From: Euglena gracilis
Taxonomy: Eukaryota
DNA length: 64,000 nucleotides
Assembly (NCBI GenBank): GCA_039621445.1
Contig: CP154954.1
Location: forward strand, 45,115,847 to 45,179,846
Direction of reading: 5' to 3'
The notes below the pieces were generated by a model. The model worked only from the letters and a program-made list of their open reading frames with translations, was not told where the DNA came from and did no database searches. A program made the translations under genes and the position numbers. Shown piece by piece: positions 44,426-64,000 of the stretch (positions are counted from its first letter, which is position 1; every line of letters starts with the position of its first letter).

Positions 44426-44588
44426 ATCACAACACCTCAGTGAATCCACCCCATCGAAAAAAAATGGGGTTTTCATCTTCACACCACCAAGAACGTGAGT
44501 GTTTTTTTTTCCTCTGAGGAGAAATTGCGTGGAAAGCAGGTCTTCTAAGTTTGGCAACCCCAAAAAAGATCCAAAAAGGTCCTTCAAT

Positions 44589-45490
44589 CAGGACGTCGCT
44601 TGAGCACCCCATCCCCAGGAAGGGGGGGGTCCAGCCAGCAGCCTTTTTCTAGCCCCGGACTCCCCTCCATCGACCATCGACGAGTTTTTTTTTTTATTTT
44701 GCCCCCTGCCCAAAGGGTGGCTGGAGGCTTCCCCCCCCCCTTGCCCACCACCCCTCAACAACGACCACCCCCTGGTTGGGGGGTGCACATAAGGGGGTGC
44801 ATACAACCACTGGTCTGCAAGGGTGTGCGTACAACATCTGGTCGAGGGGGTCGTGCGACTGGGGGTTGGGCCCCCAGTCGTACGACCCCCCCCCCCCGGG
44901 GTTGCAGGTTGGGGGCATGTACGACCCCCCCCCCCAGCTGGAGATTGTAGGAACCCAGCCGGTGGGCAAAGGGGGGGGGGGGTACCAGATTTTTTGTTTT
45001 CGGTTTCCAAATTTTGGTCCAAAATTGGGCAAAAAAATGGGTCGGATTCGGGCTGCCAGGGCAGTTCAGGGTCAAGAATTTGAATTTTTGGGGGTCATGA
45101 TACCTACCCCCCCCCGGAAACTGTCACCTGACAGGTTGGCTAGTACAGGGGACCCTAACAACTTCGTATCATGACAGGTTGGCCGGTACTGGGGACCCGG
45201 ACAGTTTCCCGGGCGGGACCCTGACAGGTTCTCGGGCATGACAGTTTCCCGGGGGGGGGGGGGGGTAGGTAATGGCAAAATTGGCAGTTTTGGGGGCATT
45301 TTTGCAGTTTCGATTTGTTTGGCGCGTGCCTGGTTCGCCCCCGGGTCCAGCCCAGTTTCAACCGGGGCTACAGGGGGGATCAGCCAGCAGCCTCGCAGTC
45401 AGCCAGCCAGCCCGCCCGCCCAAATTCCCAGCCAGCCCAAATTTTCCAGCCTCTGAGCTGGACCCCCTGGGGTCACTGAGCGACGCCCTG
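44589..45490. mobile_element. hAT-like element with nested TA-flanked MITE (45101-45271)
   Basis: TIR CAGGACGTCGCT / AGCGACGCCCTG; flanks CCTTCAAT / CCTCCAGT (6/8). Confidence 0.65.
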
Positions 45491-48199
45491 CCTCCAGTTT
45501 GACGTCCAAAGAAACACTGTCATTCTTACACCCCATCCTTGAAATTATCCCACCAGGTAGGTATTGCCTTGGCTCGGACCTGATGATTCTTCATGATGTC
45601 TCCTGGGGTTGTGCTCGCAGGCGGCAACTCCCCCCGCTGGACATGGGCGATGGGGTGGGGGAGTCCTGCCTGGGGTAAGTAACGTTCTCTATCCAGCATT
45701 GTTGAGAGGTTTTTGGATTTCCACCTCCAAATTTCATTTCATTTCAGCAGCAAGATTTCAACCCAGCTGGATGTGGATTTTTTTACCCGCTTTCGGGTAC
45801 CAGCAGGCTGCTGGACCTGCCTCCCTCCCCCTGGACCCCACCCCTGGGGGGGGGGGGGGTCCAGCCAACGCCTTTTTTCCCAACCAGCACGTTTTTCCAG
45901 CAGTCCCACAGGACCCCCCAGGGGTTTTTAAGAAAACCACTGACATGGATGGGAATGGGAGTTTGGGCTGTTAGGGACACTTCTATGTTATGCTTTGGTT
46001 TGCCATTCTCAGGACTTGAATTAATTCGAGTGGGGATCCCGCCGTAAACCCGCCCTGAACAGAAGCCCTCGGGGCTTCTATTCAGACCGTTTGGTCGAAA
46101 ACCGAGGAGGGGGCTTCTATTCGGACCAATGGTCAAAATCCGAGGTGGGGATTCTATTCGGGGGGGGGGGGTTACCGCCCAAAGCGCCACCGCCTCAGAC
46201 GCTCATTGGGAAGCAGCAGCAGAAAAGGTTTGCGGCGTCCCCACGAGGAGAGTTCCATTTCCCTCGTGGCACATATGGGGTGTTCCCAACTCCTCCTGGC
46301 TGACCCCTGTGTACCTCTCTTTTGAGGGTCCACATCACCTATTCACCTGCTCTGGATTCTGTTGGCATCCTGCCTTATATGTTGAACACGGTTTGTTCTT
46401 TTGCGAACCCAAAAAAAAATACCATTGGCACGCATTGAGCTTCGCAATGCGCAATACGTCGCAAGAATTTTTGCACCCTCATCCCAGTGGGTAATTACAG
46501 GCAAGCACCTCGGCAAGCACCTGAGCGATGCTGGGCGATGTTGGGCGATGCTGGATTTTTGGAGACCAGAGGTGGGGTCCCATACTGGGCGATGGGCGAT
46601 GCTGGCATTTTTTGCATATTTTGAAGAATTGAAAAGGTTAGAACAAATAAGCAATCATTAACCACAATTCTCTTCTATCAAACCCATTGTTGCCATTTTG
46701 GAGTAAATGGCAACAATTTCTTTGTTGCCATTTCTTTTCTAATTTGTGGACCACCCCGCGATGATTTGGGCAAACATTGGGTATGGCATTTTTGGCCGTT
46801 TCATGCTTTGGTGGTTTTGGGTCGTCGGTCATTTTGGCCACGTTTCGGGGCTTTTTGTGGTCGTTTTGGGGCTTCTGTGGTCATTTTGGCCTGGATACTG
46901 GAAAGATGGAGCGGTGTCCCTTCGTGGTGCCTTGTTTCGCCGGGTTCAGCTGACTGGTAATTGCCCCTTCGACACCCAGAAGAAAGGACAGAAAATGCGT
47001 CAGAAGAGGTTTCAAGCAAATAATTAAATACGAAATCGATATACAGGAGGACGCGTGCCAGAAGAACATAAATGGACAATTCAATCATAAAAATTCCAAT
47101 TTTTTATTTCAATGAAACATGAAGATTCAAAGAAATTGGATTCATGCCGCCGGCGCGGAGGGGCAGCAATGGCCGCAGAAACTGTAAAAATTGACCGTGC
47201 GGACAAACCCTGACGAACCATTGCCGCCCCCCAAAATTCCCACAGAAAACTCCACCCAGTAACGGCTGGGCCCTTTGGCCTTGCGGCTCGAAAGCCAAGG
47301 CATTCAAAGTCAAAAAGGGACCATCGGACTCCCACGGCGAAGGAAGGGGAAGGAAGAGACGAGGAGGGCGAGGCACAAGAAGATGGCGGGGTCCTTCTTT
47401 CTTTTACAACTATTGTGTTCTGGTTTGTGGTGTGTGCGCGGGGGGGGGGGGGGGGGGCTCCTTACTGCGCCGTTGTTGCCGGGATCGGCGATGATAAGGC
47501 CTCCGCCGATACCTTGGAGAAGCTGAATCCCCCCACGGGGTCGCTTGGTGGGAAGCTCCCGTTCTGGCGGGGATTTCTGTCTCTTTCTGGTGATTTTCTG
47601 GGTGGGGCTTTTGTGTTGCTTGGCAGGGCTTCCCCTTTCTGGCTGGGACGTCTTTATGTGTCTGGTGTTTCTCTGGGTGGGGTGGAGGGGTTGGCTCACC
47701 ATCTTCTTGCGCTTCGCCCTTCTGGTCCCTTCCTCCCATTTCCTGGGAGTTCGAGGCGAGTCGCGAAGTCCGAGACCATTCAACCCCCCCACCTATAACC
47801 CCCCCCCCCACCTATAAACCCCCCCTCGGGCCGACCAACCAAACCGGGACCTGTAAACCCCCCCTGGGAAGAAAAATGACAGCCGCCGGGGACGATTTTT
47901 TTGGCCGCAGACCACCCAAAAACTGATTTTTTGGCAATATTTTGAGACCGACTATCTTCAAAACTGCCTTTTTTGTCCAAATTTGCCGAAAACTGCCAAT
48001 TTCGGGGGTTTTGGGGGTCATTTTGGGGGGTCGGTTTTTCACCAACAATTCCGCAACCTATAAACCTCCCTCGCACTTTTAACCCCCCCCCTTCGGCCGG
48101 CCAACCAAACCGGATCCTGTAAACCCCGGGGGGTTTATAAGTGGGGGGGGGGGGGTTACTGTGCATCCCTCCTCTCTGGGCCATAATCATTTTTTACTT

Positions 48200-51040
48200 T
48201 TTGACACGACCTCCAGCTTCAAATAATGAGCTTGGAAGGCCCAAAAAAAATTCCACTACTTCTTCACCTGCAAACCAGCATATTTCCACCATGAACACGA
48301 TCCCCTCTGGTGCTGTGGGGATTCCAATGGGAGGTGTCCACACACCCCCCTCCGTCAAACTTATTTGTTCACTCTGCCTGACATTCATTCACAAAGTCCT
48401 TTTCCCATCCAAAGAACATAAATTATTTTTGTGTCCAACCATGTGGGCTTTCCTCCCCACACATTCTTGCAACAAATGCCAGGTGCTTATGAGTGGGTTC
48501 TGTGGGAGATTCACAACCTCCTGCCACCGGTGGTACTGCCATCCTTTTCTTTGAAACAAAATGAAAAAAAATTTCACCCAGAGAACTGATTTTTTGCTTG
48601 GTTCTGGCTAGATCAACCCTGCTGTGAAGGGCTAGCAACCTCCAACAAATAATCAATCTCTTTCTGAGGCCTTTCAAATACCATTTTAGAGAGGGGCTCA
48701 AAATGTTTGTTCAACTGCATCCGAAACATTGATGGATCCCATTCACACATTGCACGCTATTTGAAGAACATTTAATGGCACCAACATGATCTCCAAGCTC
48801 AGTGGATCACTATTAATAGACAAGTTATCTCTGGATCTAGCATTAATATCTGGAACTGCTCTGTAAGCATCCTCCGGGGGGGTTTGCATAAACTGGTGGG
48901 AGACCCCTTAAATCTGCCCTCAGTGCATCTCCTAGAAAACCCCCTTGGTGGGGCAATCTACAAATTAACTTTTGAAATATCTTGTTGCCGAGAGTACAAG
49001 TACATGTCCACATCTGGGGTGATGTATTTTTGAAGTATTTCAGGATCTTGTGAAAGATGTTTAGGTTTCCTTGGTCACGGAGTCTGCCACTGCTCCTGGG
49101 TGGTAACCCAAACCACTTGCAAGTTGAATTGTTTTCTTGGCAATGGTACAGAAGTGGTTTCAAAATGTAATTTAGATATGGATTTTTGCCTCCTCATTTC
49201 GTGAGCTACCTTACAGATACCTGGCTGTCAACGTGGAGAACAATGGTTTCTTTGGGTTTTGCCACTTCCTGGAACCCCCCCCCCCTGAGGAAGGTTCTTT
49301 TGTGAGAAGTTTCGGCGGGCTCACTTGGTGTTTGTGATTCGCCTTCAGTGTCCCTTCCTCCCCTCTAGGTCTGCCTCGGGGGAGTGCGAGACACCTTGGG
49401 CTTTGCACTTCCCCCAACTGAGGTTGACTGTGCACCACTCGGGGAGGGGGGCGGCTCCACGTAAGAAATTTTAATCTTAAAGCGTGCTCCAAGTTTTCTT
49501 GGGCACCCAACTCTGATAGTGGGAACAAAAGGCTTCCACAACTTCCCATTGAAAAATCTCACAAACCAATTCTGAGCTCAAACACATTTTTTCCATCAAG
49601 TTCACTCCTGCCCCCTGGCAGAGGGATGGCCACAAATACGGGAATCAATCCCAAAACTTCTAAGACTTTTTATAGTTAAAGATGCAATGGTGTCCGTCTT
49701 AATACCCCTGAAGGAGGTTTGGGGGGTCAAAAACACATGCCCCCTGTTGGGCAATGGTCTTTTTTGCAAGGGCCACATATTCTTTAAAAAATGAAAGGGA
49801 GAGATTTAGGTAATTTTTGTTAAATAAACCATTGTTTACAATCTTGCTATTTTTTTTACCGTTCCTCCGAATTTTTGCATAAGGAGTTGAGCCTAGTAAA
49901 CTTGCACAACGTCTCATTTCTGATAAATGAGAATATCTGAGCAACATCAATAATGGACAATCCAGAATCAAGTGCAAACGTAACTGTGACAGGTTGTTCT
50001 GAAGGGTGGTAAACGGAACTGAGGCCAGACGATCTGCAAAAAGCTCAGTTCTATTGTGGGGCAGGTCAGAAGCTACTTCGTTTACACGCCATTTCTCAAA
50101 ATTTTAAGAGATCAATTTTGCAAAATGGTGGATTTGCACACCAGGTGGGGTTGGGACCACATCCGCCATTTCCCATGGGGTCTAGGATCAAATTGTGTAA
50201 TTAAATTAATTTCACAGCCAGGTGTAGGAAGGGCATTTCAAAACAATGCCTCTCAAGGACTGTTCTCAGAAGGAGCACCTGGCAGTGGTGGAAGGTCTGG
50301 ATAAAACTTGAGGTCGAAATGTGAATGATTTTTGAAGGGACGGACCTGCGTGCCCTTCATATAAACGAAAAGGAGTTCATGTCTGCCGTGGAAACAGTAA
50401 ACGCTTTGGTCTCCCCCCCCCGGAATCGTTTGCACCGGAGCACAGAGCCAGCCAGCTCCGGTAAAATCGCAGCACGAATGGTACAAAGTCTAACCTTCCC
50501 AAAAACATTCACCTTCAAAAAGACGGCAAGGGAGGCGTTGCGTCACTTGGTGTTTGTGCTTCGCCCTTGGTGTCCCTTCCACCCCTCTCGGTCTGCCTCG
50601 GGGAGTGTGATTACAAGTCAACCACTGCCTCGTGCGGCGGCACGGACGTTGGACAAATTTGGCCAGACGGAAAAGGCAAAGGAAAATGTCACCACAGGTC
50701 GATCAGACTCCCTCCACTCTCTCCATTCCCCTCTTCCAGGGAACAGATGTTTCCAGCATGGGCTATGGCAGCCCTTCAAATCAACAGCTATGGCAACCAG
50801 CAAGCGTCATGGCAAGGCGGCACGAGGCACATGTATCAAAATCATGATTTGCAAATGGAGGGGAAATACAAATTTTATTTGTATTTCCAGGTCGAACAGA
50901 CCTCCCGTCCCCCCTTTTGTTCACCCCTCAGGGTCAGTGGGAGCCGGACAGGGCATCAGCCCTTCATTCGAAGGCTTTAGGGCCATCAATTCAAAGACCA
51001 AAATGGAAGACACCTGGGACAACACATCAAACAGACCTTC
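48200..51040 (-). pseudogene. Heavily decayed non-LTR retrotransposon RT remnant
   Basis: Minus-strand fragments in RT order: KAF (~50400), RGIVLKCP (~50240, cf. RGVRQGCP), LFADRLA (~50035, cf. YADDL), FALDSGLSI (~49965), and a WHLLQEC Zn-knuckle-like piece (~48475). Many stops and frameshifts. Confidence 0.45.
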
Positions 51041-51041
51041 T

Positions 51042-51179
51042 CCCTAAACCGTAACCCTAACCCTAACCCTAACCATAACCCTAACCCTAACCCTAACCCT
51101 AACCCTAACCCTAACCATACCCCTAACCCTAACCCTAACCCTAACCCTAACCCTAACCCTAACCCTAACCCTAACCCTA
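51042..51179 (-). repeat. Interstitial telomeric repeat (TTAGGG)n, ~22 units
   Basis: (CCCTAA)n on the + strand with a few variant units. Confidence 0.95.
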
Positions 51180-51180
51180 C

Positions 51181-51428
51181 GTGCTGTGTGGTTTCTAATG
51201 GGAGCTGCCCACACCCCCCTCTTGCAGAATCTCTTTGGTGAGGGAATTCACTCTGTCTGAGGTCAAAGGCCTTTTCCCATACAAAAACCATAACAAAATA
51301 TTTTTGTGTCCAACCATGTGGGCTGTCCTCCCCACATATTCTTGCAATAAATGCCATGGGCTTATGAGTGGGCTGTGTGGCATATTCATTACCTCCTCCT
51401 CTGGGGTACTGCCACCCTTTCCTTTCCT
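51181..51428 (-). repeat. Diverged second copy of 48310-48552 (3' region of the decayed retroelement)
   Basis: Shared blocks GTGCTGTG, TTTTTGTGTCCAACCATGTGGGCT, TTCTTGCAA.AAATGCCA, CTTATGAGTGGG and GGTACTGCCA. Confidence 0.85.
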
Positions 51429-52194
51429 TTGGCCTGGACGACCTTTTGGGTGGGGGTCCCCCCCCCGACACCTTGGTGCGGACCAGGTTCTGAGTAGTGC
51501 TGAGCTCTTGATAAGCGCGCACCCAACCCCTTCGTTGACCCCCCATATACACCGGCCCACAGTGTACGTCCAAAGCTTTCCCTTTTTCCCTTTTTGGGAC
51601 TTTCTGTAAAAGCCTTTCGCTTTCGCCTTGGTGCGCAGCCTACTTATGGTAGGGAAAAGTCTTTGGAGTAACGAAAAGTGGTTTTCCCCTTTTCTTCCCA
51701 ATTCCCCAAGAAGCAAAGCACAAAGCAAAGACTCAGAAGTTCCTTCTGAGATCAAGTTCGATTGTTCCGAGGGTTTTTCCCTCTGACAAAACCAATGGTC
51801 AAACTTGGAATTGATGACAGTGAAGAATACCACCTGTGGGGGAAGGAGAGAAAAGTGCTGACGTGTCCAGGGGCAGAGCCCAGAAGGGTCTGCCACGATC
51901 CTACCAGCTGTGGTTTTCCACAGTGGTGCGACCGTCACAGAACCCACTCTGCAGATATCCTACAGAGCTGGGACGTGCCTGGTACACATCCCCCTCCCAG
52001 GGCTACGCCCGATTTCCTTCATGGACCAGGGTTTCCCAGTCCAGTCAGGATATCTGACGCTGCCCTAGGTGGGGTTCACCTCTCCATTCGGTGTCTCTCC
52101 TTTCCGCACAGTGGCATCCACCCAAAGCCCAAAAACGCGCAAAAGGTTAGCCGCGTTTCGCGGTTACCTATTAGCCGTTTCGGCTTAGGTGGGG

Positions 52195-52630
52195 TGTGAA
52201 GAAGCCCACTGTGTAAAACGGGGCTTGGCAGGTTTCCTGACAAAGTGTCCCATCCACCCACTTTGGGTGTGCCAAAGGCACGCGGGGTTGGTCAAGCGAT
52301 TTGCTGAAAACCCGAGGGGAGAGGTGTGGAAGGGGGGGGCAGGCTCCTATCCTGGTCATACCCGGATAGGGCTCCTAGGCGGTCATATCCGCACTAGGAA
52401 ACAAAAGCCTACTTACAAAACCGACTGCCGGCGACAGCTTTGCGGGGGTGGGGGGAAAGTAGGGAGGACAGGGGGGCTGGCTTAGGCCAGAACAGAATTT
52501 TTGCTGTCTGGCAGCCTTAAGGGCCTTAGGGCCGAAAAGTGACAAGTTGGCCTATTATTACGGCGTGCGCGCTGTGTGCTGTGCGTCACTTAGCGGCTTG
52601 CCAGGTTTCCCGGCTGCCAAAGTCTTCACA
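52195..52630 (-). repeat. Candidate 3' LTR
   Basis: Bounded by the 8-bp inverted repeat TGTGAAGA ... TCTTCACA, 265 bp past the accessory ORF stop. No convincing polypurine tract, and the partner LTR is not in the window. Confidence 0.35.
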
Positions 52631-52895
52631 GCAGTAGCTCCTTCACAACGCAATAAGAGGCGATTACCTCTTGCAGACGGTTTCCGTCCGCATGGCCATT
52701 GGCAGAGGGGCTGGTGGCGGGGGGGGGGGGGGCTCTTGGATGCTTCCATCCAGAGCGTAGAGTGACACAGACCCAGGTTCATCCCAGGGCTGTTTAGCGA
52801 TTTCCGCTACCATTGTATATATATGTATAGGATATGGATGTCCAGGCTCCATGAAGGCACTTACCTTACATGAGCCTGGTAATGCCGTTTCGGCA

Positions 52896-55800
52896 TTACA
52901 TCCGTTCCAGCCGCCAATAATCATGGCGGGAGTCCAAGGGATCTTCCACAAGGACCATATGGAATTGTGGTGGTGGTGGCCTATCTACGAGCCAGGTTTC
53001 TGGCGATTCGTATTCGAAATCAGGTGCCACCCAGTCCCGAACCCATCCTTCGGGGACTGGATGCTTGGTTGCACTCGCTCTTTCCGCGAGGAACCATTGC
53101 AGTTTCTCCCAGAATTTCCTGGGCAGAGTTGCTGACCAGATGAAGTAGTTCATCCTTGGGTGATTGGCCGGCACCTGCGGGGCATTCCCCGGGTGGAAGT
53201 CAATCGGCATGTGATAGGCGCATTCCGCCCGGACTGTATGGGGTCGTAATACGGCCCCAAGCCAGTCTTTCCAGGTCATCCCGTGGTTTTCGGGTGGCCA
53301 TTGTGGCAGGCACCAGCGACCGTTTCGGTGCTGGTTTTGGAACAGGCGGAAAAGTATCTTTTCCCTGTCTGCTGTCTCCCAGAGGTAAGGTAATCTTACC
53401 CCTGCCTCCTCAGCAGCGAGGCGTATCGCCCCACTGTCGATCTGCCACCCACGGGCCATTCCCGTGTGGCGGTAGTCGTCCAGCTTGAGGTTGGCATACT
53501 TGAAAAAGTCCTTGAACTTTTTGTTCAAGGTGGAGTATTCCTCCAGTGGCTTCTCGGCACTTGGCACGATTGTGCGTACTGCGCCTTCCGCAGTGTGCCA
53601 GAAGGTACCTCGAAGGCAGTTGACGCAGAGAACTGGTACATTCGTACCGTCTCGGTCCGTGTAGCTGAAATTGTGCTTGTGGGTCCAACTGTCCACGCAC
53701 TTGGCGCATACCAAGGCGGCACAGTTAGGGATGTATACATCCTTGTGGAACGATTTCCGATCCACAGGGTTGCACACATGGACGAGGGGTAATCCCAGGT
53801 CAAGTGCACTGTTGTACATCTTGTGGCATACAGTGCAAAGCCACACAAAACGGTTTTCCGTTGTTTTGTCGATGAGGAATTCCTCACCGAAGAATTCGGC
53901 CAAAACACGGGGAGATCTGGAATTGTAATAATTCCAGGTCACATTCTGATCAAAGGACCATTTCCGTCCCTGACAGAACAGTGGCTCAATCCACCGGTTA
54001 AGGCATTGCTGTGTCCTCAATTTATGTGCGATCATCATGTACCTGTTTTTCAGGTCATGAATGTCAGGGTCATCCTGATTGATCGCGTTCCAGTCGATGA
54101 CAACTTCGTCTTCTGAAGGTGTCTCGGCTGTCGAGGCGCGGGATTTTCCCTGCCCCTTTGTCGGAGGTTTCGGCTGTGAGGTTTTCCCATAGCCGGATGA
54201 CGTGACGTGCGTGAATCCTTGTCCCGAGGTTAATCCCCGAGAAGAGGATGCAGCACTCTGGCCGCCAGCACCACCACCGCCTTTCGGTGGGGGCTGATCA
54301 CCAGATTTCGGTGTGGGTTTGCAAGGTGCGGCGCCCGGCTTACTTTTCGCCGGGGCCTTCGGGCTTCCGGCTTCCGGAGTCTCCGAGGGCCGCCGCTCGG
54401 CGTCTCGCTTGCTTGCCCACGTGCGTGGTGACGCTTGGGACGGGGGTCTTTTCCCCGACGCCGAACGTCGTTGACCTTCAGCAGGGGTTTCCCGAGCTGA
54501 TGGTCGTCCTACACGCTCCTTCGCGGCTCCCGAAGGTTTCCCAGGGGTAGCCGTGGGGGATGGTGTTGGTGTAGGCCTAGCCTGTGCACTTCGCGCTGGC
54601 TGAGCCTGTGGTGGAGGCATGGACGCCCGCTCGGCCTGTTTTTCAGGCGCCGGTGTCCGTGTGCCTTGACGCTTCTCTGCCGTGACTGTGGCTGTACCAT
54701 GAGATACGGGTTCATCCCGTGCCTCCGGTGGTACCGCCGGTGTCGATACAGGTTCATCCTGTACTGACACGGCTGGTGTTGTCTCCACAGTCATTGCTGT
54801 CCGTTCGCCTTCCGTCCGTGTCGCTTCCGACACTGGCGGTGGCGCTGCCGTTGGGGGAGGTTCATCCTCCACCATGGCTGCAATGTCAGATGTGTCTTCC
54901 GTCAGCTGGGCAGTTTCCGCCGCAGCTGTGGAAGAACTGGCCGCAGTGCCACGTGGAGTGACTACTGCGATCAGTGACCGTAAACCACCGAGTACGCGTC
55001 CGCCCAGTGAGGTGCGTCTCTCCTCACCTGAAGTGGGCTCCTCGGCTGGCTCCTCTGTTAACGGGGTTTCCCCGGAAACAGGGAGCTTGAGGCGTAATAC
55101 CTCAGGCGTGTGGGGTACCGTTTCCGGCGGGTTTTCCCGCGGAGGGGTTGGTACACCCGCTGTACCCAGTGAGGCTGGTGATAGAGGGACAGGTGTCATT
55201 TCACCTGCTTGTGATCCTGGGTGTTGGGCGGTTTCTGCCACAGTATCCAGCATCACTACCGATGGGCTACGGGTTTCCCGTGCCGGAGGTTCCGTTGGCT
55301 GAGGTTCATCCTCAGCCATTGGGACCTCCTCCTCCTCATCCGCTTCCGGAGAGGATTCGGCTGCGTGTAGCTGTGCTGCAGAACGCGGGTCTTTCCCGCT
55401 CCTGTAGCACCCTTGTGCGTTTGACAGGCGGAAAAAGCTAATACTTTCACTCCTGTCAGAGTTGGGGTATGGGGGCGGCCACGTCGCTCTCACCCAGCTT
55501 TCGGGTGGAGGCTGTGGTTGATCATCGTCGATCAAGCAAAGGTCTTCCCACTGCCGTCGACAATGGTCAGTCACGCCAAACTCTCCTGTTTCTTCCAGGA
55601 ATGCTGGCAGTGGCAACGCGTAACGAGGGACTTCCCCTTCGTGCGCCGCGAAAAACATCTGAAAATCCTCCCATATCAGGATATTCCCGAATTGGGTATC
55701 CAGGTGTTCCTGGAGACCGATTTCGGCCTCTTCCCAGTCTGGTCGCAGGTTCATCCTGCGCTGGTCTGGGTCATTGGGTCTGGCGTTCACCTCCATATAT

Positions 55801-58336
55801 CCCCGAGGCAACCACTTTCTGTGGATTTCCACATCGGCGGTCATATATTCCAGGAAATATATGTAGACCTCCAGGACGTAGGTAATCCACGCCCTGTGCC
55901 AGTACTGCTGCAGCAGAAATATTTTCTGCCGGTGCTGTTTCAGCACCTTTCGGTCTTGCGTTCCAATCTGGGGATTCCGGCACTGATGCAGGAGGAATCT
56001 CCTGGTCGGCTGGCTGCCGGCATTCTCGGCAGACGGAGGCGGTTTTCCGCGTTCTCCGAAACCCCAGAAGTCAACGATGTGGACTTCCTTGCAAAACTGG
56101 CATTCCAGTTTGTACCGCTGGGGGTACGCGAGGTCCACGTCCAGTACCTTGAACAGCATGCCATACATGCTGTCCAAGAAGACTTGGAGGTTGTTCGTGA
56201 ACATTACCGCAGCCTGCGCCTGGAGTTTCTCCGGCAGGGGGTAATACTTCCACTGGATTCCCAGTGCGCTGACCGAAAACATGTGGTTGAAGATTTCCTT
56301 CAACTGTGCGACGAACGTTTCGCCGTCTTCACAGGTATTCAGGCAATCGATATACGTCAGACCGTTTCGGTCGGTAAAAATGCCGAAATTCTGGCAGGGG
56401 TATCCCAACCAGAACCACAGTTCCCAGAAACCAGGCATCTGGTCCAGGACAACTTCATTCGAATGAGGGTATCCCTCGAACGCATGAAGTTCGGCACTGT
56501 AGAAAAAACGTTTGCAGTGATCGTTCATACGATTCTGCACCACTTCGAGCACCGCATCCGGTGGTCGGTGGATCACGTTGCCTGCCCTTGTGAACTTTTG
56601 GAGATCTTCGTCGATTTTCGGCCAGATCTCCTCCAGCTACTTGAACACTGAGGCAACGTCATAATCCTTCGTTTTCGAAGGCTCGGCGGCTTTCCCGCCC
56701 TTACCTGCTGGGGGTCCGGCAGATTTACCGCCTTTGCCTGGAGCTAGCCAGGCGGCTTTTCCGCCTTTGCCAGGTGGGGCTTTCCCACCTTTCTCCTGGC
56801 CTTTTCCTTTCCCCTTACCTTTGCCCTTTCCTTTACCCTTGCCCTTTGTGTTTGACAGCCATTCGAATGTCGCCCGGTATGGGTCAAAGTATTCCCAGTA
56901 TTCTGGGTCTTCTGGCGTAAACACTGGGTAAGTCACGGATTCCGTGCTTGGCGTTCGAGCAAATTCCTGCTCAGCATCACCACGATTCGAGTAAACCGGT
57001 GCGACTGGGGATGGTCGGGTTTCCCGACGTGCCCGTTCTGCCGTCACGTCGGGCGCTGGCGGAGCTTCCTCCTCAGCGTCGACGTGCATCGCCGCGGGCG
57101 GATTTTCCGACCTCGGCGAGCGGCGCTGTGGCTGCGGCGTCAGATTTTCCGGGCCGCGGTCACGCTTGCCGGCGGCAGAGCTTGTGGGTCGTGCTGGTGG
57201 CGCTTCCGCCACAGCCACGTCCCGCTGTCGCGCTGGTTGACTTGACCGTGATGGAGCTGGCTCCTGTGAGAGCCGACACAGCAGCATCATACTGCTGGCG
57301 CTCTTCCCGTGTCATTTCCGCCCGGGCAGGGTATCCCTGGCCAGCGGAAACAGGGGGGCGACGTGCGATTTGTCGTTGGATCGTCACAGCATATTCATAC
57401 TGTTGACGCTCCTCCTCAGTCTCGAACGGCCGACCAGTCCACGGGTTAACGGGTTCATCCCGTGCCGGGGGAACTGGTGCCGCACGAGGCGCTGCCGCGG
57501 CTTCCCGCGGACGAGCGCTTCGGGCAGAGTCAGACGTCGGGGGAGGATTTCCCTCCGCAGGACGTCGTGGGATAGGGTCAGGTATGGTTGGGTGGGGTTG
57601 AGGTGGATATACGTACTGATCCCGTGGCATTGGCGCCTCCTGGGGATAATCCCCAGAGACGGTGTACTGAGACACAGGCTCCTGCGCAGGATAATCCCGC
57701 CGGGGCATGCGCTCAGGGGATCGAAAAATACTTTCTTTCACACGTGGGTGTTCACTCCGGACAGGTGCTTCCACTGTCTCTTCCTCGGGTAATCCGGGGG
57801 AGTGAGCACGAAAATGTGCAGTGTAAGTGCCAACTGGTGGTACCTGCCGTGCGACCTGTGGCGGGACTTCCACGCCCAGGTCACGCATGGTAATGTCTGC
57901 CGCGAATCCCGACGCGTCCGGGTCGGTGTAAATACACCAGACCGGTCATCGTCGCCTGGGCGCACATACACCACAGGGCTGGAGGGGTATTCGCGATGGT
58001 CAAAACTTTACGGCAGTGGTCATCCCACAATGCCTGTGTGAGTTGGTCTGGTGCCGGGTTTGCGCTCATACGCATAACCCGGTTCATCGTCTCCGCCGTG
58101 CGGTGGATCATCACACCCGCATACGGTGGGAGGCGACGAGAGCCTGATGGCTGAGATGGCCGCGCTTCCGCGGGCATCTGGGTCATCCTGCTACTGCTGC
58201 TGGCTTCAGGGTTTCCCTGAGCCGCAGTCCGTGCAGGTGGCTGCGTACCGTATCGGTACGCATACTGGTCAGGTTGAGGGTGAGTGGTGGGGTGGTAAGG
58301 CGGTCCTCCGCCTGGCTCCCTTCCGCCGGGCAGCAT
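52896..58336 (-). CDS. Accessory ORF of the retrotransposon (~1,800 codons when joined); unknown function, Cys-rich RING/Zn-finger-like C-terminal domain
   Basis: Track ORFs 57881-58336, 57738-57974, 57160-57888, 56637-57290 and 52896-56576 chain together. The breaks are short-repeat frameshifts (~58003, ~57943, ~57270) and one in-frame TAG (56637-39). Cys cluster CTVC..C..H..C..CAKC..CVNC at ~53615-53840. Confidence 0.7.
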
Positions 58337-58427
58337 AATACAGCCCGGGGTCGGTACGGTAGGATGTTTGGGTTGTTGGTTGTAAGGTGTGTGAGGGTAA
58401 CCGCTTGAGTATTATTTGGTAAAAAGT

Positions 58428-58478
58428 CTGCGGAAAGAAAGAATGATAAGAATCAATGATAAAAAGAAGAGAAAACAA
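58428..58478 (-). promoter_or_regulatory. Candidate 3' splice / spliced-leader acceptor upstream of the accessory ORF
   Basis: Minus strand TTGTTTTCTCTTCTTTTTATCATTGATTCTTATCATTCTTTCTTTCCGCAG, between the pol stop (58499) and the ATG at 58336. Confidence 0.6.
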
Positions 58479-58498
58479 CATGGGTTTCCCATGCGTTC

Positions 58499-61400
58499 TC
58501 AAAAACTTGTCATGGAAACATCAATGTTATGTTTCTTGTTCCACAGCTTCCAATCTTGCTGGACATACCCAACAAAACTGGTTGCTGGCTCCCAAGTGTC
58601 CTCCTCGGGCCCATACCCTTTCCAGCGGACCTTCCAAAGGTGCATACCTTTGTCGATTTTGTGATCGATAATTTTATCGACTACAAAGTCGTCCGTCTCA
58701 GGTAATCTGGAACGGGGTTTGAAGTGCAAACACGGGATGGGTTTCCCATCCGGTGGCGACAGGTATGGTTTGAAGTCGTCCATATGAACGTCCTCAACAC
58801 CATTCGGTAATGCAACCTTGTAACGCCCGCTGGTACCTAGTCTTTCTAGGATTTCACAGGGGCCGAGCCAGAGGGGGTCCAGCTTGGAAGACTGCATGCG
58901 AGTACGGCTATTCCGTACCCACACGCGGTCACCGGGACTATACACAGGTGACTTGAAATTCTGCAAAAACGATTTCCGTTTTGCTGCATGAATATCAGTC
59001 ACGCGCTTCTGGACTGCAGAACGTAGATTTTCTACTTCCGCAAACCAGGTCTCGCAACTGACACTCGTTCGGGCGGGTCTCTCCGAAGGGACATCCCCTA
59101 TGGCCGGAGGGTCCCGTCCGAAAACTAATTTATAGGGGGAGTGAGGTAAAACCAACCCTGGTAGGGTATTGATATAAAACAAAGACCATGGTAGAACTGA
59201 TATCCAGTTGCTGCGCGAGTCAGCCAGTGAAAGGCGAAGCATATTCACGACGGATTTCACGGCTGCCTCGGCTCTACCATTGCCTTTGGGTCGGTATATA
59301 ATGGAAAAATGTTGCTCGATTCCGAGTAAACCGCACAAAGTGGTGAAAAACCTTGAAGAAATCAAATGGTCTTGATCACTCACGATTTCATTCGGTAAAC
59401 CCATTAAGCAAATGCATTTCTCCAAAAATATAGTTGCCAAACTTTGGGCAGTCAACCCTGACTTCTGGCATGGAATGGCTACAATGTACCCACTCAGCCT
59501 GCAGACGACAACAAAAACGTAATCGTAAATTTTGTCGTCCGTTCCTTTGCACGGTTCTAATTCCAGAAAATCCATGCAGAGGGATGTAAAAATGTCAGGG
59601 GGTACGGGGAAAAAGTCCATCGTACCAGGGGGGGTACCTCTGCGGGGTTTTACCGCTTGACAAATTTGACACCGTTGCGCTATTCGCAAACAGCGTGAGT
59701 AAAGCTCTTTCTCGCTCAGGGTTGTGCAGTACCTGCGGCCCACCAACGAAAGAAGTTTGGGGGCCCCAGGGTGACCATGGTTGTGATAACACAAAATCAC
59801 ATCATCAACCAGGTCCTGGGGATACAATATTTGTAACCCGATTCATTGCGAAAAACCAACCGTAAAGGTGAAAGAGTGTAATTGTCCAGCACTTCGCCAT
59901 TACGAAGTCTGGTGACAATGGTGTCATACACCGGATCACGACTATAATCCCATTCGCGAAAGAACAGTGGGGAAGGGGACTCCGTGCGCGTAATACGCCG
60001 GGGCCCGGACGTGCTTCCACGTCGGCGCCTTCCTCGCACTGGTGCGACCAGGAATAGTTGTGAAACGGGAAAAGAATCCAAAAGATTATCCGCAGCGTCG
60101 TTTCGACGTGCGTAGTCGTCAGCTTCCTGACTTCCATGAAAAGTCGCGTCTCCCTCATCCGGGTTCCCAGGGTAATACCAAGGGGCCCGACTGAGCGGAT
60201 CCGCTACTTTTTGTGTGTGACCAGGGGTATAGATAACCACAAGGTTGAATTGACTCAAGAACTCATGCCATCTGCATCGCCTTCCGACCGATGACATGGC
60301 CTTGTTCAAATCCTCGGTGTACCAGTGTTGGAGACTCTCATGGTCGGTCTTGACGAGGATCTGGACGAGGCTGCTGGCTACCCAGCTTCGGAATTTCTGG
60401 AGTATAAGCACGATTGCGTAGGTTTCCTTCTCGCGTATACTCCAGTTGACTTGACCTTTTCCATCGTCGCCCTGTAACTTTCTGCTGAAGAAAGCCACAG
60501 GTCGGAGCTCATTCGCCGCATTATGCTGGCTAAGAACTCCGCCAACAGCGTAATCGCTGCTGTCGACTTCCAACACGTATGGTTTGTACGGGTCCGCGAT
60601 TTCGAGGACAACATTTTCCAAAAGCAAAACCTTGATTTTCTCAAGGGCCTCGCGCATTTGGTCATCCCAAATGACTTTGGTGTTGTCAACAGCCCGGTTT
60701 TTGAGCTGTTTGGTGAGGGGCACCGCGATTTTCGCGAAGTCCTTCATATAAATCGCGTAGTATTGGGCTAATCCCAAAAACCCTTTGAGGTGTGTTGTCG
60801 TTTTGATTACCTCAGGGGTCCATTTCTTAATAGCTTCGAGTTTACTCGGAGCGGCTTTCCGCTGTCCATTGCTGAGGATGTGCCCGCAAAATTTTACAAG
60901 TATCCGAAACAAATGCATTTTCGCGCCTTTCGCGAAAAGCACATGTTTTTGAAAAGCGGCTAATACCGCGCAAACATGGTGGAAGTGTGTGACGAGGATA
61001 TCCTCGCTCGATTTTGCGGATGGTGGTGGTGTTCCCACCAGCACATCATCAATGTACACAATGGCAAACGGTAAATCGCGTAGAACCCATTGTATCATGC
61101 GCTGAAACATGGCTGGGCCATTCTTAACACCCATGGGGAGTACCGTCCATTGGTACACACCGTTGGATGTCACGAATTCCGTGTTAGGTTGGGAGTCAGG
61201 GTGTAAGTGCATTTGGTGAAAACCGTCCTCCAGATCGAAAATTGACCACAACCGGTTTTCCGATTGTTTGGTGATCAAATCCTCGATCAGGGAGAGCGGG
61301 AAGGGATCATCCCTTGTTTGGGAGTTCAGGTACCGGTAATCCAGCACCAGCCTCCATTTCTTCTGACCTGAGGGGTCTGGGGGTTTAGGAACGACAAATG

Positions 61401-63632
61401 CTTGGGATGTCCACTCGCTTTTCGAGGGTACGATCCACTTGCGCTGTATAAGCTTCTCAATCATTTCATTGAGAGCTTGTTCGCGTTCTCCCGAACAACG
61501 AAAAAATTTCCGGTGCATTGGCTTGGCTCCATCCTTAAGCTCGACCTTACAAACACCGAACGGACCGCGTATCGCGGGGTCGATGTCGCACGCGTATACT
61601 GGATTTTCCAGCACACCGTGGATTTTGCGGGTAATCCGCGAACAGAATTCGGCTGACTTAGGATGCTGACCTGCACTCTCGATGACTGCGGAAACCGCCA
61701 GGGTATCCCTGGGGCTACCGAGCTTCCTCGGCACCGCGAATTCGGACATTCCGAATGCATCGAAGAAACATACGCGAAAAATGATTTCTTGCAAGGGTGG
61801 TAATATTTTACCACAAAAATCCTCAAAAATCGGTACATTAGTGGGTAAATCCCACCAATGAAAACATACATACGATAGTTGGGTGAACCATTCCGCTTCC
61901 GGAATGATGGGTATGAGAATAACTCCACGGGCTTCATCCCGCAGAATTTTCTCAACCGCACATTCGATAAGTTTTGGGGAGGGTGCATCCATAACACCGT
62001 ATCATTCCAAAATTTATCAAATGCGTTGGAGTGTTGTGACCAATGACATGGCAAACGGGCATGTGCATTGGATGAAAAGGCATCGATTTCCAATGCCAAA
62101 TCAAAAGAATCAGCCAATGTCGCGATTTTGGAAAACCATCGTTCCAAAATGCGATATTGACCAAAATTAAAAGCATTCCGTACGCGTTTCGCGTATTCAT
62201 GCACCCGATTTTCGGGTTGAAGGGTAGAAACACAATGAATGGATCCACAAACATGCGAGTTGTCTTCCACTACCTCAAGGGGTAATCCCAAGGGAGTTTG
62301 GACAGGTTGGGGGTTTCCCCATTCCGCATCAAATCCGTACCAGGTGTGATCGCGATTGTAGTTAGGAATGACGCTTTTCGCATTTCCAAACAACGAGGTT
62401 AATCCGCGTTGTTGGAGTACTCGGTGTATCTCCGCGCATTGCGGGCTACAACCAAGTGTATCATGGCGTGTGGATTCCGTATTCGGAATTGTGATTAGTG
62501 TCGGAGTTTCAACTAAACATCCACAATCGAAATCCGATTGGGTGGAAATTCTCCTGCAGTGCACACATTGGAAGGAAGTGTGTTGGTGTGACAGGTGTGC
62601 GTGTAAGTGGGTGTCGATGGCATTAGCCGGTGAGTCTTGTACAGGTGTGCCTGGATTCGGCACAACTGGTGGGAAACGGAGTGGTGGTGTAGCTGGGCGA
62701 CTACTCGACACCGTAATTACTTCAGGCCTTTGGGCTTTCGTCTTGTAACCCAGTGAAACGGCGGGGGTACCGCTACTCGCTTGCCCTGCCTCATGTGGAA
62801 CGCATGTTGGTGTGTCATTGGGCAGGGGGGAGGCTTTCTCCGTACCCCGGGTGTGGAAAACGGTTGGTGGTGTGGTGGATAACGGTGTTGCCATTGTGGG
62901 TAACGGTGTTGGAAAAGTGGTGGTCATCATTGCGGATGCCAACGGTGATGGTGGTTTGGGTGTCAATGAAGTGGTGGGTGCTGTGCGCAAACCGTGGGAG
63001 TGGCAATCCACAACCAATCGGTACTGGTGTAAAAATGGGTATCCCAAAATTACGTCAGACCCGTGAATTCCGGACTCGTAACCCCAAATATTGGTGAAAT
63101 GTTGTAATTGTGGGGGTTGTGAGTGATGCTTCGGAATGATGGGCAAGAGTATCTCGAGCACACATCCCAAATCACCACCACACATGGGGGTGTTATCCGC
63201 GGTTGTAATTTTGATCGGTTTCTTGGCGCTTACCAAGAGCGGGGTCGGTATCAACCCCAACCGAAAGAGCAGTGCAATGCGACAACCAGTGTCAATGAGA
63301 ATTTTAACTTTGGTGGAGAAATTTTGAATGCGGATTTCCGCTTGGACAAGTAATTCCATTGGTGGTACGCAAAGTGAAGGGTCTGGCGGAAATACGTTTG
63401 CATGCCAGCTCTCCCATGAACCCTTTCCTACTTTGCTCAGCATTCCGAGCGGAAATGTGGAGTGGGGGGTAGGGGACCCGAAATGATTCCGGGTACTGAC
63501 CGTGAAGGCGGATGGGCAGGGGGGGTAAGGTTGATCAGGTCTTACCTCCATCTGTTCATCAGCCCAGAGGGCCTGTGCCCTCGGACCTCGGGCTCCCCTA
63601 CTCCAAGTCCGAACCGGCCGCATAGCCGGCAA
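58499..63632 (-). CDS. pol: Pol polyprotein PR-MTase-like-RT-RNaseH-IN-CHD, with two 1-nt frameshifts
   Basis: Protease LIDTGC (~63285-63299) and ILGYPFL. RT WRLVLDYRYLN, FDLEDGFHQ, PMGVKNGP, YIDD (61045-56). RNase H EVDSSDYAVGGVL, REKETYAI, TDH. Integrase HNHGH..CQIC, MDF/SDQD/GRAE, GPCEI. Chromodomain VDKIIDHK..WKVRWKGYGPEEDTWEP. The ORF pieces join if one base is added at homopolymers near 61975 and 59820. Confidence 0.93.
61750..62165 (-). CDS. Dam/DIRS-type DNA N6-adenine methyltransferase-like domain within Pol
   Basis: QYRILERWFSKI..LEIDAFSSNAHARLPCHWSQHSNAFDKFWNDTVLWMHPP/xKLIECAVEKILRDEARGVILIPIIPEAEWFTQL matches the phage-Dam/DIRS pattern: W.L...F, [IL]D.FA...NA, [DN]AF...W, W.NPP..I..V..K, .L+VP......W. 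Recognised by eye. Confidence 0.75.
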
Positions 63633-63999
63633 TGGACTTTTTGGTGGAATAGATGGAATTCAATGAGCGCACCGCCATTCGGGCCTCATTAAATTCCCCG
63701 TCCGAGGTCTCATCTCCCTCCCTGCCCGAAGCCGGGGTGTCCTCCTCCAAACAAGACATCTTGAAACTGACCTTTTGCCGGTTGGAGGAGTAACCACGGT
63801 CATCGCGGCGCTTACCGCGATTTCCGTAGCCGGGCCGGGGGGAACGAGATCTGGGACATTTGGATGCGTGGTGATCTTTGGAACCGCAAAGTGAGCAACG
63901 GGCTTTGTGGCGGGATTCCGCATAACGGGGGGAACGGTATTCCGTTCGACCGTCAAACCGTCGTGGTGAACGGGTTTCCCGTCGACCATGACCGGTGTA
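63598..63999 (-). CDS. gag: Gag C-terminus with CCHC zinc knuckle
   Basis: Open frame not in the ORF track: YTGHGRRETRSPRR...ARCSLCGSKDHHASKCPRSRSPR...AAGSDLE*. CX2CX4HX4C at 63856-63897; TAG at 63598-63600. Confidence 0.85.
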   Translation of the reverse strand, partial: YTGHGRRETRSPRRFDGRTEYRSPRYAESRHKARCSLCGSKDHHASKCPRSRSPRPGYGNRGKRRDDRGYSSNRQKVSFKMSCLEEDTPASGREGDETSDGEFNEARMAVRSLNSIYSTKKSIAGYAAGSDLE

Positions 64000-64000
64000 C

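Follow-up and report, generated by a model that had tools for sequence, protein, structure and literature searches.

Dam-like methyltransferase domains were earlier known only from DIRS retroelements, according to the two sources that treat them (PMC5890265; bioRxiv 10.64898/2026.05.21.726589), and this literature agrees with the preliminary description of the present locus, which had called the domain typical of DIRS. DAM-LTRs, including chromodomain-bearing Gypsy/chromovirus elements, were then defined by Fernandez-Moreno et al. in May 2026 (bioRxiv 10.64898/2026.05.21.726589). In that preprint, the DAM of LTR elements is described as captured from DIRS elements, five DAM-LTR lineages are distinguished, and the presence of DAM-LTRs is associated, not strictly, with host AMT1. 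In Euglena and two ichthyosporeans, DAM-LTR insertions were reported there to bear more 6mA than other LTRs do, and expression of other DAM-TE domains in E. coli resulted in no 6mA increase. Furthermore, eukaryotic DAMs were found to align with prokaryotic DAM only from TR-2 to CD-2 (bioRxiv 10.64898/2026.05.21.726589). C5 cytosine methyltransferase retrotransposons (de Mendoza et al. 2018, PMC5890265) likewise possess a captured DNA-methyltransferase module in Pol/ORF, but belong to an unrelated enzyme family (DNMT), other host lineages and other element classes.

Within the window (the whole stretch of DNA analysed here, 64,000 nucleotides of Euglena gracilis contig CP154954.1), the minus strand was found to carry the Pol of a chromovirus-like Ty3/Gypsy element with the order protease (PR), linker with Cys box, DAM, reverse transcriptase (RT), RNase H, integrase (IN) and chromodomain (Table 1). 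The PR-RT-RNase H-IN order with an rve integrase, together with a chromodomain C-terminal of the integrase, identifies the element as Ty3/Gypsy, and the rve and PF00385 matches bear out its earlier designation as a DDE-integrase Gypsy element with a chromodomain. No match to Phage_integrase (tyrosine recombinase) was obtained in the pol ORFs at E <= 1, and the element does not classify as DIRS. The DIRS1-group tyrosine-recombinase retrotransposons possess a methyltransferase domain of the same family as the window DAM. In DIRS elements this domain comes after RNase H and the recombinase is a tyrosine recombinase, whereas the window element possesses a DDE integrase with an H2C2 finger, a chromodomain, and its DAM before RT.

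Comparison by tblastn showed that the window pol is collinear with relatives P0001, P0002 and P0004, the identity across RT-IN being 65-69% and the matching segments lying in three frames. The protease region gave no Pfam protease match and was assigned by motif and position; its D-T-G-C-R is invariant in an alignment of eight relatives (A2). The Cys box was identified as a conserved island (0.47 identity) within a linker of 0.07-0.13 among P0001-P0007.

The DAM-LTRs of the preprint, including the Euglena DAM-LTR/EpiLTR group, share with the window element a Ty3/Gypsy-like Pol, DDE integrase, chromodomain and DIRS-type DAM in one polyprotein (bioRxiv 10.64898/2026.05.21.726589). One relative showing this likeness, P0030, is EukProt transcript EG_transcript_113, and three others (P0035, P0037 and P0038) also carry a C5-DNMT, like the EpiLTRs described in the preprint. 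The window element, having a DAM within a non-DIRS LTR retrotransposon as in the definition of these elements, is a further DAM-LTR. Its architecture, which the preliminary description recognised independently from the raw sequence without being able to say if it was undescribed, was first reported in the May 2026 preprint. The PR-DAM-RT order is not given in the available text of the preprint and was seen here.

Within 44000-64000, direct repeats that would pair with the element as LTRs were not found, the window ending inside gag with the 5' end beyond it. A second copy of the element or of the DAM domain was not found within the 64-kb window. The downstream ORF of 1246 aa (P0116) gave no Pfam match, and no usable ESM Atlas match, and none of 8000 scored candidates (685-2181 aa) proved homologous to it. 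Both P0116 and the long ORFs at 52896-58411 are at most candidate parts of the element. In the window, Rfam returned 0 matches, tRNAs were not detected, and 10 large ORFs were without Pfam matches. Another 103 ORFs, each 150 aa or longer, yielded a single Pfam match, to TPR repeats only, and a pattern search for relatives of this ORF found none.

Table 1. Features of the element on the minus strand of the window, in 5' to 3' order.
Feature	Position	Strand	Basis or remark
gag 3' part	63598..63999	-	cut by window end; stop codon 63600-63598; from ORF list
CCHC zinc knuckle in gag	63897-63856	-	pattern read from translation; no Pfam match
gag/pol boundary difference	63574..63574	-	one letter more here than in most family contigs
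retropepsin-like aspartic protease	63030..63400	-	LIDTGC 63299-63282, ILGYPFL 63050-63030; 5' limit approximate
Pro/Thr/Ser-rich linker	62571..63029	-	poorly conserved; matching region in relatives 0.20 mean pairwise identity
small Cys box, C-x2-C ... C-x-C, between protease and DAM	62517..62570	-	motif coordinates
DAM N-terminal half, upstream frame	61965..62198	-	helical lead-in, IDAF (motif I-like strand), NAF..W, LWMHPP (motif IV loop)
frame break inside DAM	61974..61977	-	homopolymer run right after PP codons; one letter fewer than other family copies
DAM C-terminal half, downstream frame	61738..61983	-	helix VEKIL, strand GVILIPI, EWF helix, FHWWDLP, FRVCFFDAF
reverse transcriptase RVT_1	60877..61389	-	Pfam PF00078 E 9.8e-23, aa 205-375 of ORF 59797..62001
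RNase H-like domain	60247..60669	-	PF17919 E 1.5e-24 (aa 445-546); PF17917 E 1.2e-23 (aa 470-585)
second pol frame break, between RNase H and integrase	59815..59854	-	tblastn segments switch frame
integrase: H2C2 zinc finger, DDE core (rve), SH3-like	58778..59821	-	PF17921 E 2.5e-6, PF00665 E 1.5e-10, PF24626 E 4e-7; ORF 58499..59842
C-terminal chromodomain and pol stop	58499..58687	-	PF00385 E 2.1e-10, aa 386-421 (58687-58580); stop 58501-58499

The DAM block consists of approximately 150 aa on the minus strand between protease and RT. All motifs named in the preliminary description were recovered on this strand: ORF 61461..63659 supplies the frame of IDAF (start 62087), NAF...W (62027) and WMHPP (61991), and ORF 59797..62001 that of ILIP (61920). 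Its placement between the protease DTG and the RT motif YIDD (61059-61042) was likewise correct; of the extent first given (61750-62165), the location held and the limits did not, the profile span being slightly wider (61738-62198).

A profile (A1) built from 27 intact relatives was searched against the six frames of the 64-kb window. The upstream half (62198-61965) matched profile positions 9-84 (E 6.4e-20, 68 bits) and the downstream half (61983-61738) positions 79-160 (E 1.6e-21, 73 bits). As the next best match in the window reached only E 1.6, the DAM block lies far beyond chance. Reading of the alignment showed that the window copy keeps 4 of 4 invariant and 6 of 6 near-invariant columns. 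The window's own match to PF05869 is confined to the N-terminal half (E 0.17, 12 bits; curated cutoff 28.1 bits), and its closest relatives also score below this cutoff (P0002, 13.2 bits; P0001, 14.3; P0004, 20.6), with P0008 reaching 33.5. Of the family segments, 26/27 matched PF05869 at E <= 0.01 (best 2.6e-13), and a precomputed match exists for 21/115 relatives. This family match covers approximately positions 30-105 of the 169 of the profile, including the NPP loop; the phage and bacterial Dam profile is thus matched in part, and the window DAM differs from these enzymes in being fused into a retroelement polyprotein. These results give strong grounds for regarding the block, in identity and architecture, as the Dam-type (PF05869) methyltransferase-like DAM module of a DAM-LTR, as the preliminary description had proposed for the domain.

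The window copy itself is defective, with two one-letter breaks in pol, one of them in DAM, and a one-letter difference at the gag/pol boundary. A frameshift directly after the PP had been described before and was confirmed: the upstream and downstream frames overlap at 61983-61965 in C/A homopolymer runs, with the break at about 61975 and the downstream frame at -1 (or +2). At 59817 the window copy is also one letter shorter than other family copies. Contigs from two DNA runs (X1 and X14, short-read-derived) and two RNA-type libraries (X15 and X17) were compared at these places, with contig depths taken only as shares at single places, since their sums give impossible copy numbers and do not count copies. 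The longer form at 61975 was found at a depth of 129406/506170 in X1 (25 contigs) and 53333/207656 in X14 (8 contigs), and in the single covering contig of X15 and likewise of X17. At 59817 the longer form was present at 188042/699460 (X1) and 85349/313644 (X14), and in 1/1 contig each in X15 and X17. The letter at 63574 was absent at a depth of 60250/77621 in X1 and 27172/29521 in X14, in 1/1 contig of X15 and, at full depth, in 2 contigs of X17; in family contigs lacking it, gag and pol share one frame, with pol continuing beyond the stop codon of gag. At both 61975 and 59817, about three quarters of the contig depth is without the longer form. The broken form itself may be widespread or other subfamilies may have been aligned differently, two cases between which contig depth cannot decide.

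The breaks could be homopolymer errors of the assembly in a locus that is in reality intact. Loss of one letter from a short C/G run is typical of long-read errors and describes two of the three differences, and the longer form occurs in contigs with 99% identity to the window (X15 records 19 and 22). However, the short-read-derived contigs of both DNA runs show the window form at most depth, the third difference (63574) lies outside any homopolymer, and with thousands of copies the reads are not assignable to the window locus, so that an intact locus is considered unlikely. Programmed -1 ribosomal frameshifting at 61975 and 59817 would also account for a shift of -1 at both sites, for their positions in homopolymer runs and for the predominance of depth without the longer form. 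Against this, no X_XXY_YYZ slippery heptamer occurs in the upstream frame at 61991-61965, all 8 of 8 fetched relatives are single-frame, the in-frame form is that of the near-identical RNA-type contigs (X15 and X17), and a split in the middle of a domain is without functional sense; programmed frameshifting is therefore extremely improbable.

Regarding the wider family, it is highly repeated, and other copies read through. The three pol segments of the window copy possess no in-frame stops, and the 56-64 kb part of the window has a CpG o/e of 0.98, compared to 0.56-0.73 in the rest, from which the element family was concluded to be young; it is also very abundant. In 8/8 fetched relatives a single frame is open throughout, and in intact copies the DAM is translated as part of Pol.

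Among 115 relatives, 37 were found to possess a DAM domain, situated before RT in 36 of the 37. Comparison of DAM and RT trees showed 22/33 splits in common, while in 1000 label shuffles the number in common averaged 0.3 and never exceeded 4. The shared order and the agreeing trees indicate an architecture that is old and inherited, rather than the one-off chimera proposed earlier, and the DAM module was gained long ago and has descended with RT through a large clade. The preliminary description had also raised the question of whether the block is absent or unconstrained in sister copies; the nearest relatives were found to keep it. Mean pairwise identity among P0001-P0007, a gauge of constraint at the protein level and not a dN/dS value, is 0.52 for DAM, 0.49 for PR and 0.47 for IN, compared to 0.07-0.20 for the flanking linkers. 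A scan of metagenome contigs with the window ORF gave 13 pattern matches with 0 confirmed, and one with alignment A2 gave 181 with 2 confirmed loci (L001, 62% identical; L002, 29%), a divergence too great for dN/dS in either case.

Structure prediction, also suggested in the preliminary description, was performed on the DAM segment of P0002, the closest intact relative, in place of the broken window sequence. The AlphaFold2 model (pLDDT 89.8) contains a five-stranded sheet, with the H-P-P loop directly after strand 76-79, and on this model the DAM domain is predicted to adopt a class I Rossmann-like methyltransferase fold. The DAM of the preprint is likewise described as a five-stranded sheet with flanking helices (bioRxiv 10.64898/2026.05.21.726589). 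The top structural match was PCIF1/CAPAM (Z 10.5, rmsd 2.7 A, 128 residues), followed by rRNA adenine methyltransferases (KsgA, Erm and METTL5, Z about 8), T4 Dam (Z 7.7) and EcoDam (Z 7.1); the best Z is moderately above the background of 7-8 quoted for the tool, and many class I methyltransferases score 7-9. PCIF1/CAPAM also fills the top three rows in Foldseek (6irw_B, E 1.8e-4). A search of profile A1 against PDB sequences gave 0 matches at E <= 10.

PCIF1/CAPAM (PDB 6irx, 6irw), a cap-specific adenosine N6-methyltransferase with an NPPF-type catalytic loop, is thus nearest in structure to the P0002 model. It differs in its low sequence identity (12-15%), much larger size, RNA substrate and absence of a retroelement context. 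This ranking, the Z of about 8 for KsgA, Erm and METTL5, and the match of 1/27 family segments to Pfam PCIF1_WW (E 0.0088) would fit a DAM whose substrate is not double-stranded DNA but RNA, on which it would write m6A or cap-adjacent m6Am, or else the RNA strand in a hybrid. The lack of DNA 6mA in E. coli described in the preprint is also consistent with a non-DNA substrate (bioRxiv 10.64898/2026.05.21.726589). However, by sequence the family is PF05869 Dam, Z gaps of 1-3 within the class I methyltransferases give no separation by substrate, and a degenerate motif IV speaks against any adenine-N6 catalysis in the window sub-lineage, all of which makes an RNA substrate very unlikely.

The motif IV of N6-adenine methyltransferases is (D/N/S)PP(Y/F/W). 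The window sequence reads HPP followed by the frame break and does not conform to this pattern, and its seven nearest relatives (P0001-P0007) read, in order, NPSL, HPPA, HPPA, NPPI, HPPS, NPPL and NPPI. The aromatic residue is thus missing from the window and 7/7 of these relatives, and the Asn from the window and 3/7. More distant relatives possess NPPF, NPPY or NPPW, the P0008 lineage being of the NPPF type, and a survey of 186 domains identified NPP in 144 and F/Y/W as the fourth residue in 155. HPP with a non-aromatic residue is therefore a minority variant, and motif IV had correctly been called atypical before. The DAMs of the preprint are described with a near-universal Asn-Pro-Pro plus aromatic residue, whereas the window sub-lineage possesses H/N-P-P/S plus a non-aromatic residue (bioRxiv 10.64898/2026.05.21.726589). 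From these motifs, the sub-lineage is read as having a degenerate catalytic loop in a domain that is still conserved.

Because the loop has lost Asn and/or the aromatic residue and the domain is nevertheless conserved, the DAM of the window sub-lineage may be catalytically weakened or inactive and be retained because it serves Pol in binding or as a scaffold, a reading given about an even chance. It takes the motif IV generally recognised in other N6-methyltransferases as its reference, and a His could still hydrogen-bond. More tentatively, selection may keep the DAM in a role other than that of a DNA N6-methyltransferase, namely as a SAM- or nucleic-acid-binding pseudo-enzyme, a recruiter of host 6mA machinery or a PCIF1-like RNA writer.

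Intact copies of the window sub-lineage could instead encode a fully active DNA N6-adenine methyltransferase that writes 6mA on its own cDNA, with the chromodomain reading chromatin for targeting. This corresponds to the combination of writer and reader suggested in the preliminary description, where marking or protection of the element's own cDNA was proposed, and to the model of the preprint. Conservation of DAM at the level of PR and IN is in keeping with such activity, as are the methyltransferase fold of the model, the intact PP of motif IV, the retention of every family-invariant residue, and the higher 6mA that the preprint describes for DAM-LTR insertions of Euglena and two ichthyosporeans. 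The aromatic residue missing from the window and all seven nearest relatives, and the Asn missing from the window and three of the seven, argue against it, as do the negative heterologous assays of the preprint (bioRxiv 10.64898/2026.05.21.726589), and an active writer in this sub-lineage is thus considered rather unlikely.

In relatives with NPP and F/Y/W, the DAM is probably a SAM-dependent N6-adenine methyltransferase, and its substrate would be the replication intermediates, either cDNA or RNA:DNA hybrid. New insertions would then bear 6mA, or draw it to themselves, and come to lie in permissive chromatin, as in the model put forward in the preprint (bioRxiv 10.64898/2026.05.21.726589).

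Retroelements with their own epigenetic writers show mobile DNA adapting to host chromatin, and to these the family of the window adds the PR-DAM-RT order (36/37), the co-descent of DAM and RT, and a sub-lineage with a degenerate loop. As the family is very abundant and present in RNA-type library contigs, material for experiments should exist. The degenerate-loop sub-lineage could help to decide if DAM domains work by catalysis, which the negative assay of the preprint left open. If selection does keep the DAM for such another role despite the residues lost from its loop, it would represent a natural separation-of-function variant for the roles of DAM in retroelements.

On the minus strand, the final 5.5 kb of the window (64000 to 58499) were found to hold a Ty3/Gypsy-type retroelement spread over four frames. 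Between its protease (PR) and reverse transcriptase (RT) lies the adenine methyltransferase-like block (DAM) reported in the preliminary description; the block is real, and the four motifs listed for it were all found where they had been placed. The frameshift described just past the PP motif was identified as a one-letter frame change in a homopolymer run, directly 3' of the PP codons. The stretch from protease to DAM includes a Cys box (C-x2-C ... C-x-C) that was kept among the seven nearest Pol relatives (P0001-P0007), with 0.47 identity inside a linker of 0.07-0.13, and is possibly a zinc-binding module.

Features of the retroelement and its frame-variant sites; fractions are contig depths carrying the other form in public runs X1 and X14, which are not copy numbers
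Feature	Position	Strand	Details
gag fragment	63999-63598	minus	CCHC knuckle; truncated by window end
ORF	63659..61461	minus	Protease DTG motif, Pro/Thr-rich linker, Cys box, first half of DAM
DTG protease motif	63299-63282	minus	
Cys box	62570-62517	minus	Small
IDAF motif	62087	minus	
NAF..W motif	62027	minus	
WMHPP motif	61991	minus	
ILIP motif	61920	minus	
ORF	62001..59797	minus	Second half of DAM, RT (RVT_1, E 9.8e-23), RNase H (E about 1e-24)
ORF	59842..58499	minus	Integrase zinc finger, DDE core (rve, E 1.5e-10), SH3-like domain, chromodomain (E 2.1e-10)
Other form one letter longer, in frame	61975		X1 129,406/506,170; X14 53,333/207,656; X15, X17 single covering contig each
Other form one letter longer	59817		X1 188,042/699,460; X14 85,349/313,644; X15, X17 1/1 contig each
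Other form one letter shorter	63574		X1 60,250/77,621; X14 27,172/29,521; covering contigs in both X15 and X17

With Pfam, the first half of the block in the window gave by itself a weak match to Dam (PF05869, E 0.17). A search for longer proteins using the RT-bearing ORF returned 115 Pol relatives at E <= 1e-10 among 4626 candidates, 21 of which have a precomputed PF05869 match together with RVT, rve and often Chromo. In P0001-P0007, 65-70% identical over RT to integrase, the block is read in one uninterrupted frame. A profile (A1) built from 27 single-frame domain segments of relatives matched both halves of the window block: its positions 9-84 align with 62198-61965 in the upstream frame (E 6.4e-20), and its positions 79-160 with 61983-61738 in the downstream frame (E 1.6e-21). 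A six-frame search of the whole window gave no other match better than E 1.6. PF05869 was in turn matched at E <= 0.01 by 26 of the 27 segments (best 2.6e-13); relative to the Pfam cutoff of 28.1 bits, the more distant P0008 lies above at 33.5 and the nearest relatives below at 13-21. All invariant and near-invariant A1 columns are retained in the window copy. Comparison of A1 with PDB sequences gave no match.

The AlphaFold2 model of the DAM segment of P0002, the nearest intact relative, is a confident one (pLDDT 89.8, pTM 0.84). Helices flank a sheet of five strands, and the H-P-P loop comes after strand 76-79. By structure comparison the model has a class I methyltransferase fold, and its top matches are adenine-N6 enzymes. 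PCIF1/CAPAM was the best of these (Z 10.5, rmsd 2.7 A, 128 residues), followed by KsgA, Erm and METTL5 (Z about 8), T4 Dam (Z 7.7) and E. coli Dam (Z 7.1); scores of Z 7-8 are commonplace in such comparisons, and only PCIF1/CAPAM stands out, modestly. The best Foldseek match was 6irw_B (E 1.8e-4). An RNA-directed, PCIF1-like activity, towards which the top match of this model would point, is considered improbable.

Of 1.84 billion cluster representatives, 15,905 matched A1 at E <= 1e-3, 3,879 at <= 1e-10 and 157 at <= 1e-30. The domain is present in 37 of the 115 Pol relatives and, as in the window, precedes RT in 36 of them, the sole exception being P0055, where it follows RT. For 36 proteins, the DAM-segment tree and the RT-RNase H tree had 22 of 33 splits in common, against a mean of 0.3 and a maximum of 4 in 1000 label shuffles. 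Because of this conserved order and tree agreement, DAM is an old, vertically inherited component of a Gypsy clade, and the chimeric architecture first proposed, if understood as a recent chimera, is contradicted. The clade includes P0030, a transcript labelled EG_transcript_113 in EukProt, the prefix of which we take to denote Euglena gracilis. Three clade proteins (P0035, P0037, P0038) have a C5-DNMT in addition to DAM. Within the set made up of these three and P0018, P0042 and P0049, some relatives combine Dam, a C5 DNA methylase (PF00145) and a chromodomain, and others carry a dUTPase (PF00692); the former resemble the "EpiLTRs" (DAM, DNMT and chromodomain) of a recent preprint (10.64898/2026.05.21.726589). 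On L001, a metagenome contig relative 62% identical in RT, the YIDD box of RT is followed at once, in frame, by a DAM-like block with an NPPF loop (1069-1506, frame 1, aa 357-502; E 4e-24 to A1). Either the insertion site differs, or the contig is chimeric or nested.

Among P0001-P0007, mean pairwise identity was 0.52 for the DAM block, 0.49 for protease and 0.47 for integrase, versus 0.07-0.12 for the 30-residue stretches flanking the block on either side and 0.20 for the PR-DAM linker and DAM-RT spacer. These values are evidence of probable purifying selection on the block at the protein level.

Motif IV was surveyed in 186 domains out of 263 proteins (Pol relatives and fetched A1 matches), being NPP in 144 and HPP in 11, with F, Y or W following the triplet in 155. 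The window carries HPP, and P0001-P0007 carry NPSL, HPPA, HPPA, NPPI, HPPS, NPPL and NPPI, respectively, with an aromatic residue in none of the seven; from P0008 outward the motif is mostly NPPF, NPPY or NPPW. In N6-adenine methyltransferases the Asn/Asp makes contact with the amino group to be methylated, and the flipped adenine is stacked against the aromatic residue. Given these roles, the suspicion of altered catalysis in the preliminary description is reasonable, and it extends to the whole sub-lineage. Full DNA methyltransferase activity in the sub-lineage is rather unlikely. A weakened or non-catalytic role there is favoured, with about even chances of being correct, since the domain is conserved despite its degenerate loop.

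Using tblastn with P0002, P0001 and P0004, pol was found to be collinear over three frames. The breaks between its segments lie near 61975 and at 59817-59850, and none of the segments contains an in-frame stop. Logan contigs of four public runs were aligned to window 58000-64000; in two DNA runs the family is repeated to a very high degree (60,084 and 17,974 contigs aligned). Of the RNA-type libraries, X17 comes from a leaf-litter metatranscriptome, and X15 is assigned to RNA by guess only; contigs are evidence of presence and not of absence, and an RNA library is not proof of transcription. Since contigs carry the longer, in-frame form, the window copy is a defective member of a family in which other members are in frame. 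That the breaks are assembly errors in the two homopolymer runs is unlikely, and programmed frameshifting is very unlikely, as the upstream frame has no canonical slippery heptamer. At 63574 most family contigs lack one letter that the window has, and over 63574-63600 pol in these contigs continues in the gag frame past a single stop codon, that of gag. This suggests that Pol is expressed by stop-codon read-through or separate initiation rather than by frameshifting. The CpG observed/expected ratio is 0.98 in 56001-64000 versus 0.56-0.73 in every other 8-kb bin of the window, which is consistent with a young insertion into a genome that depletes CpG and suggests a CpG-methylating host.

Immediately 3' of the pol stop, about 5.5 kb (52896-58411, minus) look like coding sequence, and contig depth is still high down to 58000. 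Here an ORF with a GK repeat (56637-57311) is extended, past one stop codon, by a 1246-aa ORF downstream of it (P0116; 52896-56636, minus); P0116 had no Pfam match, no usable ESM Atlas match and no homologue among proteins of 685-2181 aa. About 1.7 kb past the end of the long minus-strand ORF, at 51042-51179, (CCCTAA) is repeated 22.8 times with 93% matches, an interstitial array of telomere-like sequence which hints at a TTAGGG-type telomere in the host. Window 1-57000 is nearly devoid of recognisable genes: none of ten large ORFs matches Pfam, one of 103 further ORFs >= 150 aa does (TPR repeats only), and tRNA and Rfam searches gave no matches.

De Mendoza et al. [quoted passage not shown] The available text of the bioRxiv preprint of May 2026 (10.64898/2026.05.21.726589) describes 10,030 eukaryotic DAM proteins, mostly in retrotransposons, and claims to be the first to find DNA adenine methyltransferase domains in LTR elements other than DIRS ("DAM-LTRs"), with chromodomain-bearing LTR elements making up 30.9% of DAM-TEs. 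According to it, the domain was captured independently from DIRS-like elements at least four to five times (Chlorophyta, Chloro-Ochrophyta, Ichthyosporea, Pyropia, Euglena). It reports a conserved Asn-Pro-Pro pocket, 6mA not raised upon expression in dam-deficient E. coli, and DAM-LTR insertions richer in 6mA in AMT1-encoding hosts. A literature search under its coined terms found no further retroelement paper. The architecture, held in the preliminary description to be unusual and possibly undescribed, is therefore unusual and already described; that description's identity and architecture hold, and its functional reading is a proposal only. In relatives of the NPPF type, DAM would carry out SAM-dependent methylation of adenine-N6 in replication intermediates and so favour permissive chromatin, following the model in that preprint's text, and in the window sub-lineage DAM may serve a weakened or non-catalytic binding role. 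Added here are the PR-DAM-RT order, not stated in the available preprint text, the joint descent of DAM with RT, and a sub-lineage bearing a degenerate catalytic loop.
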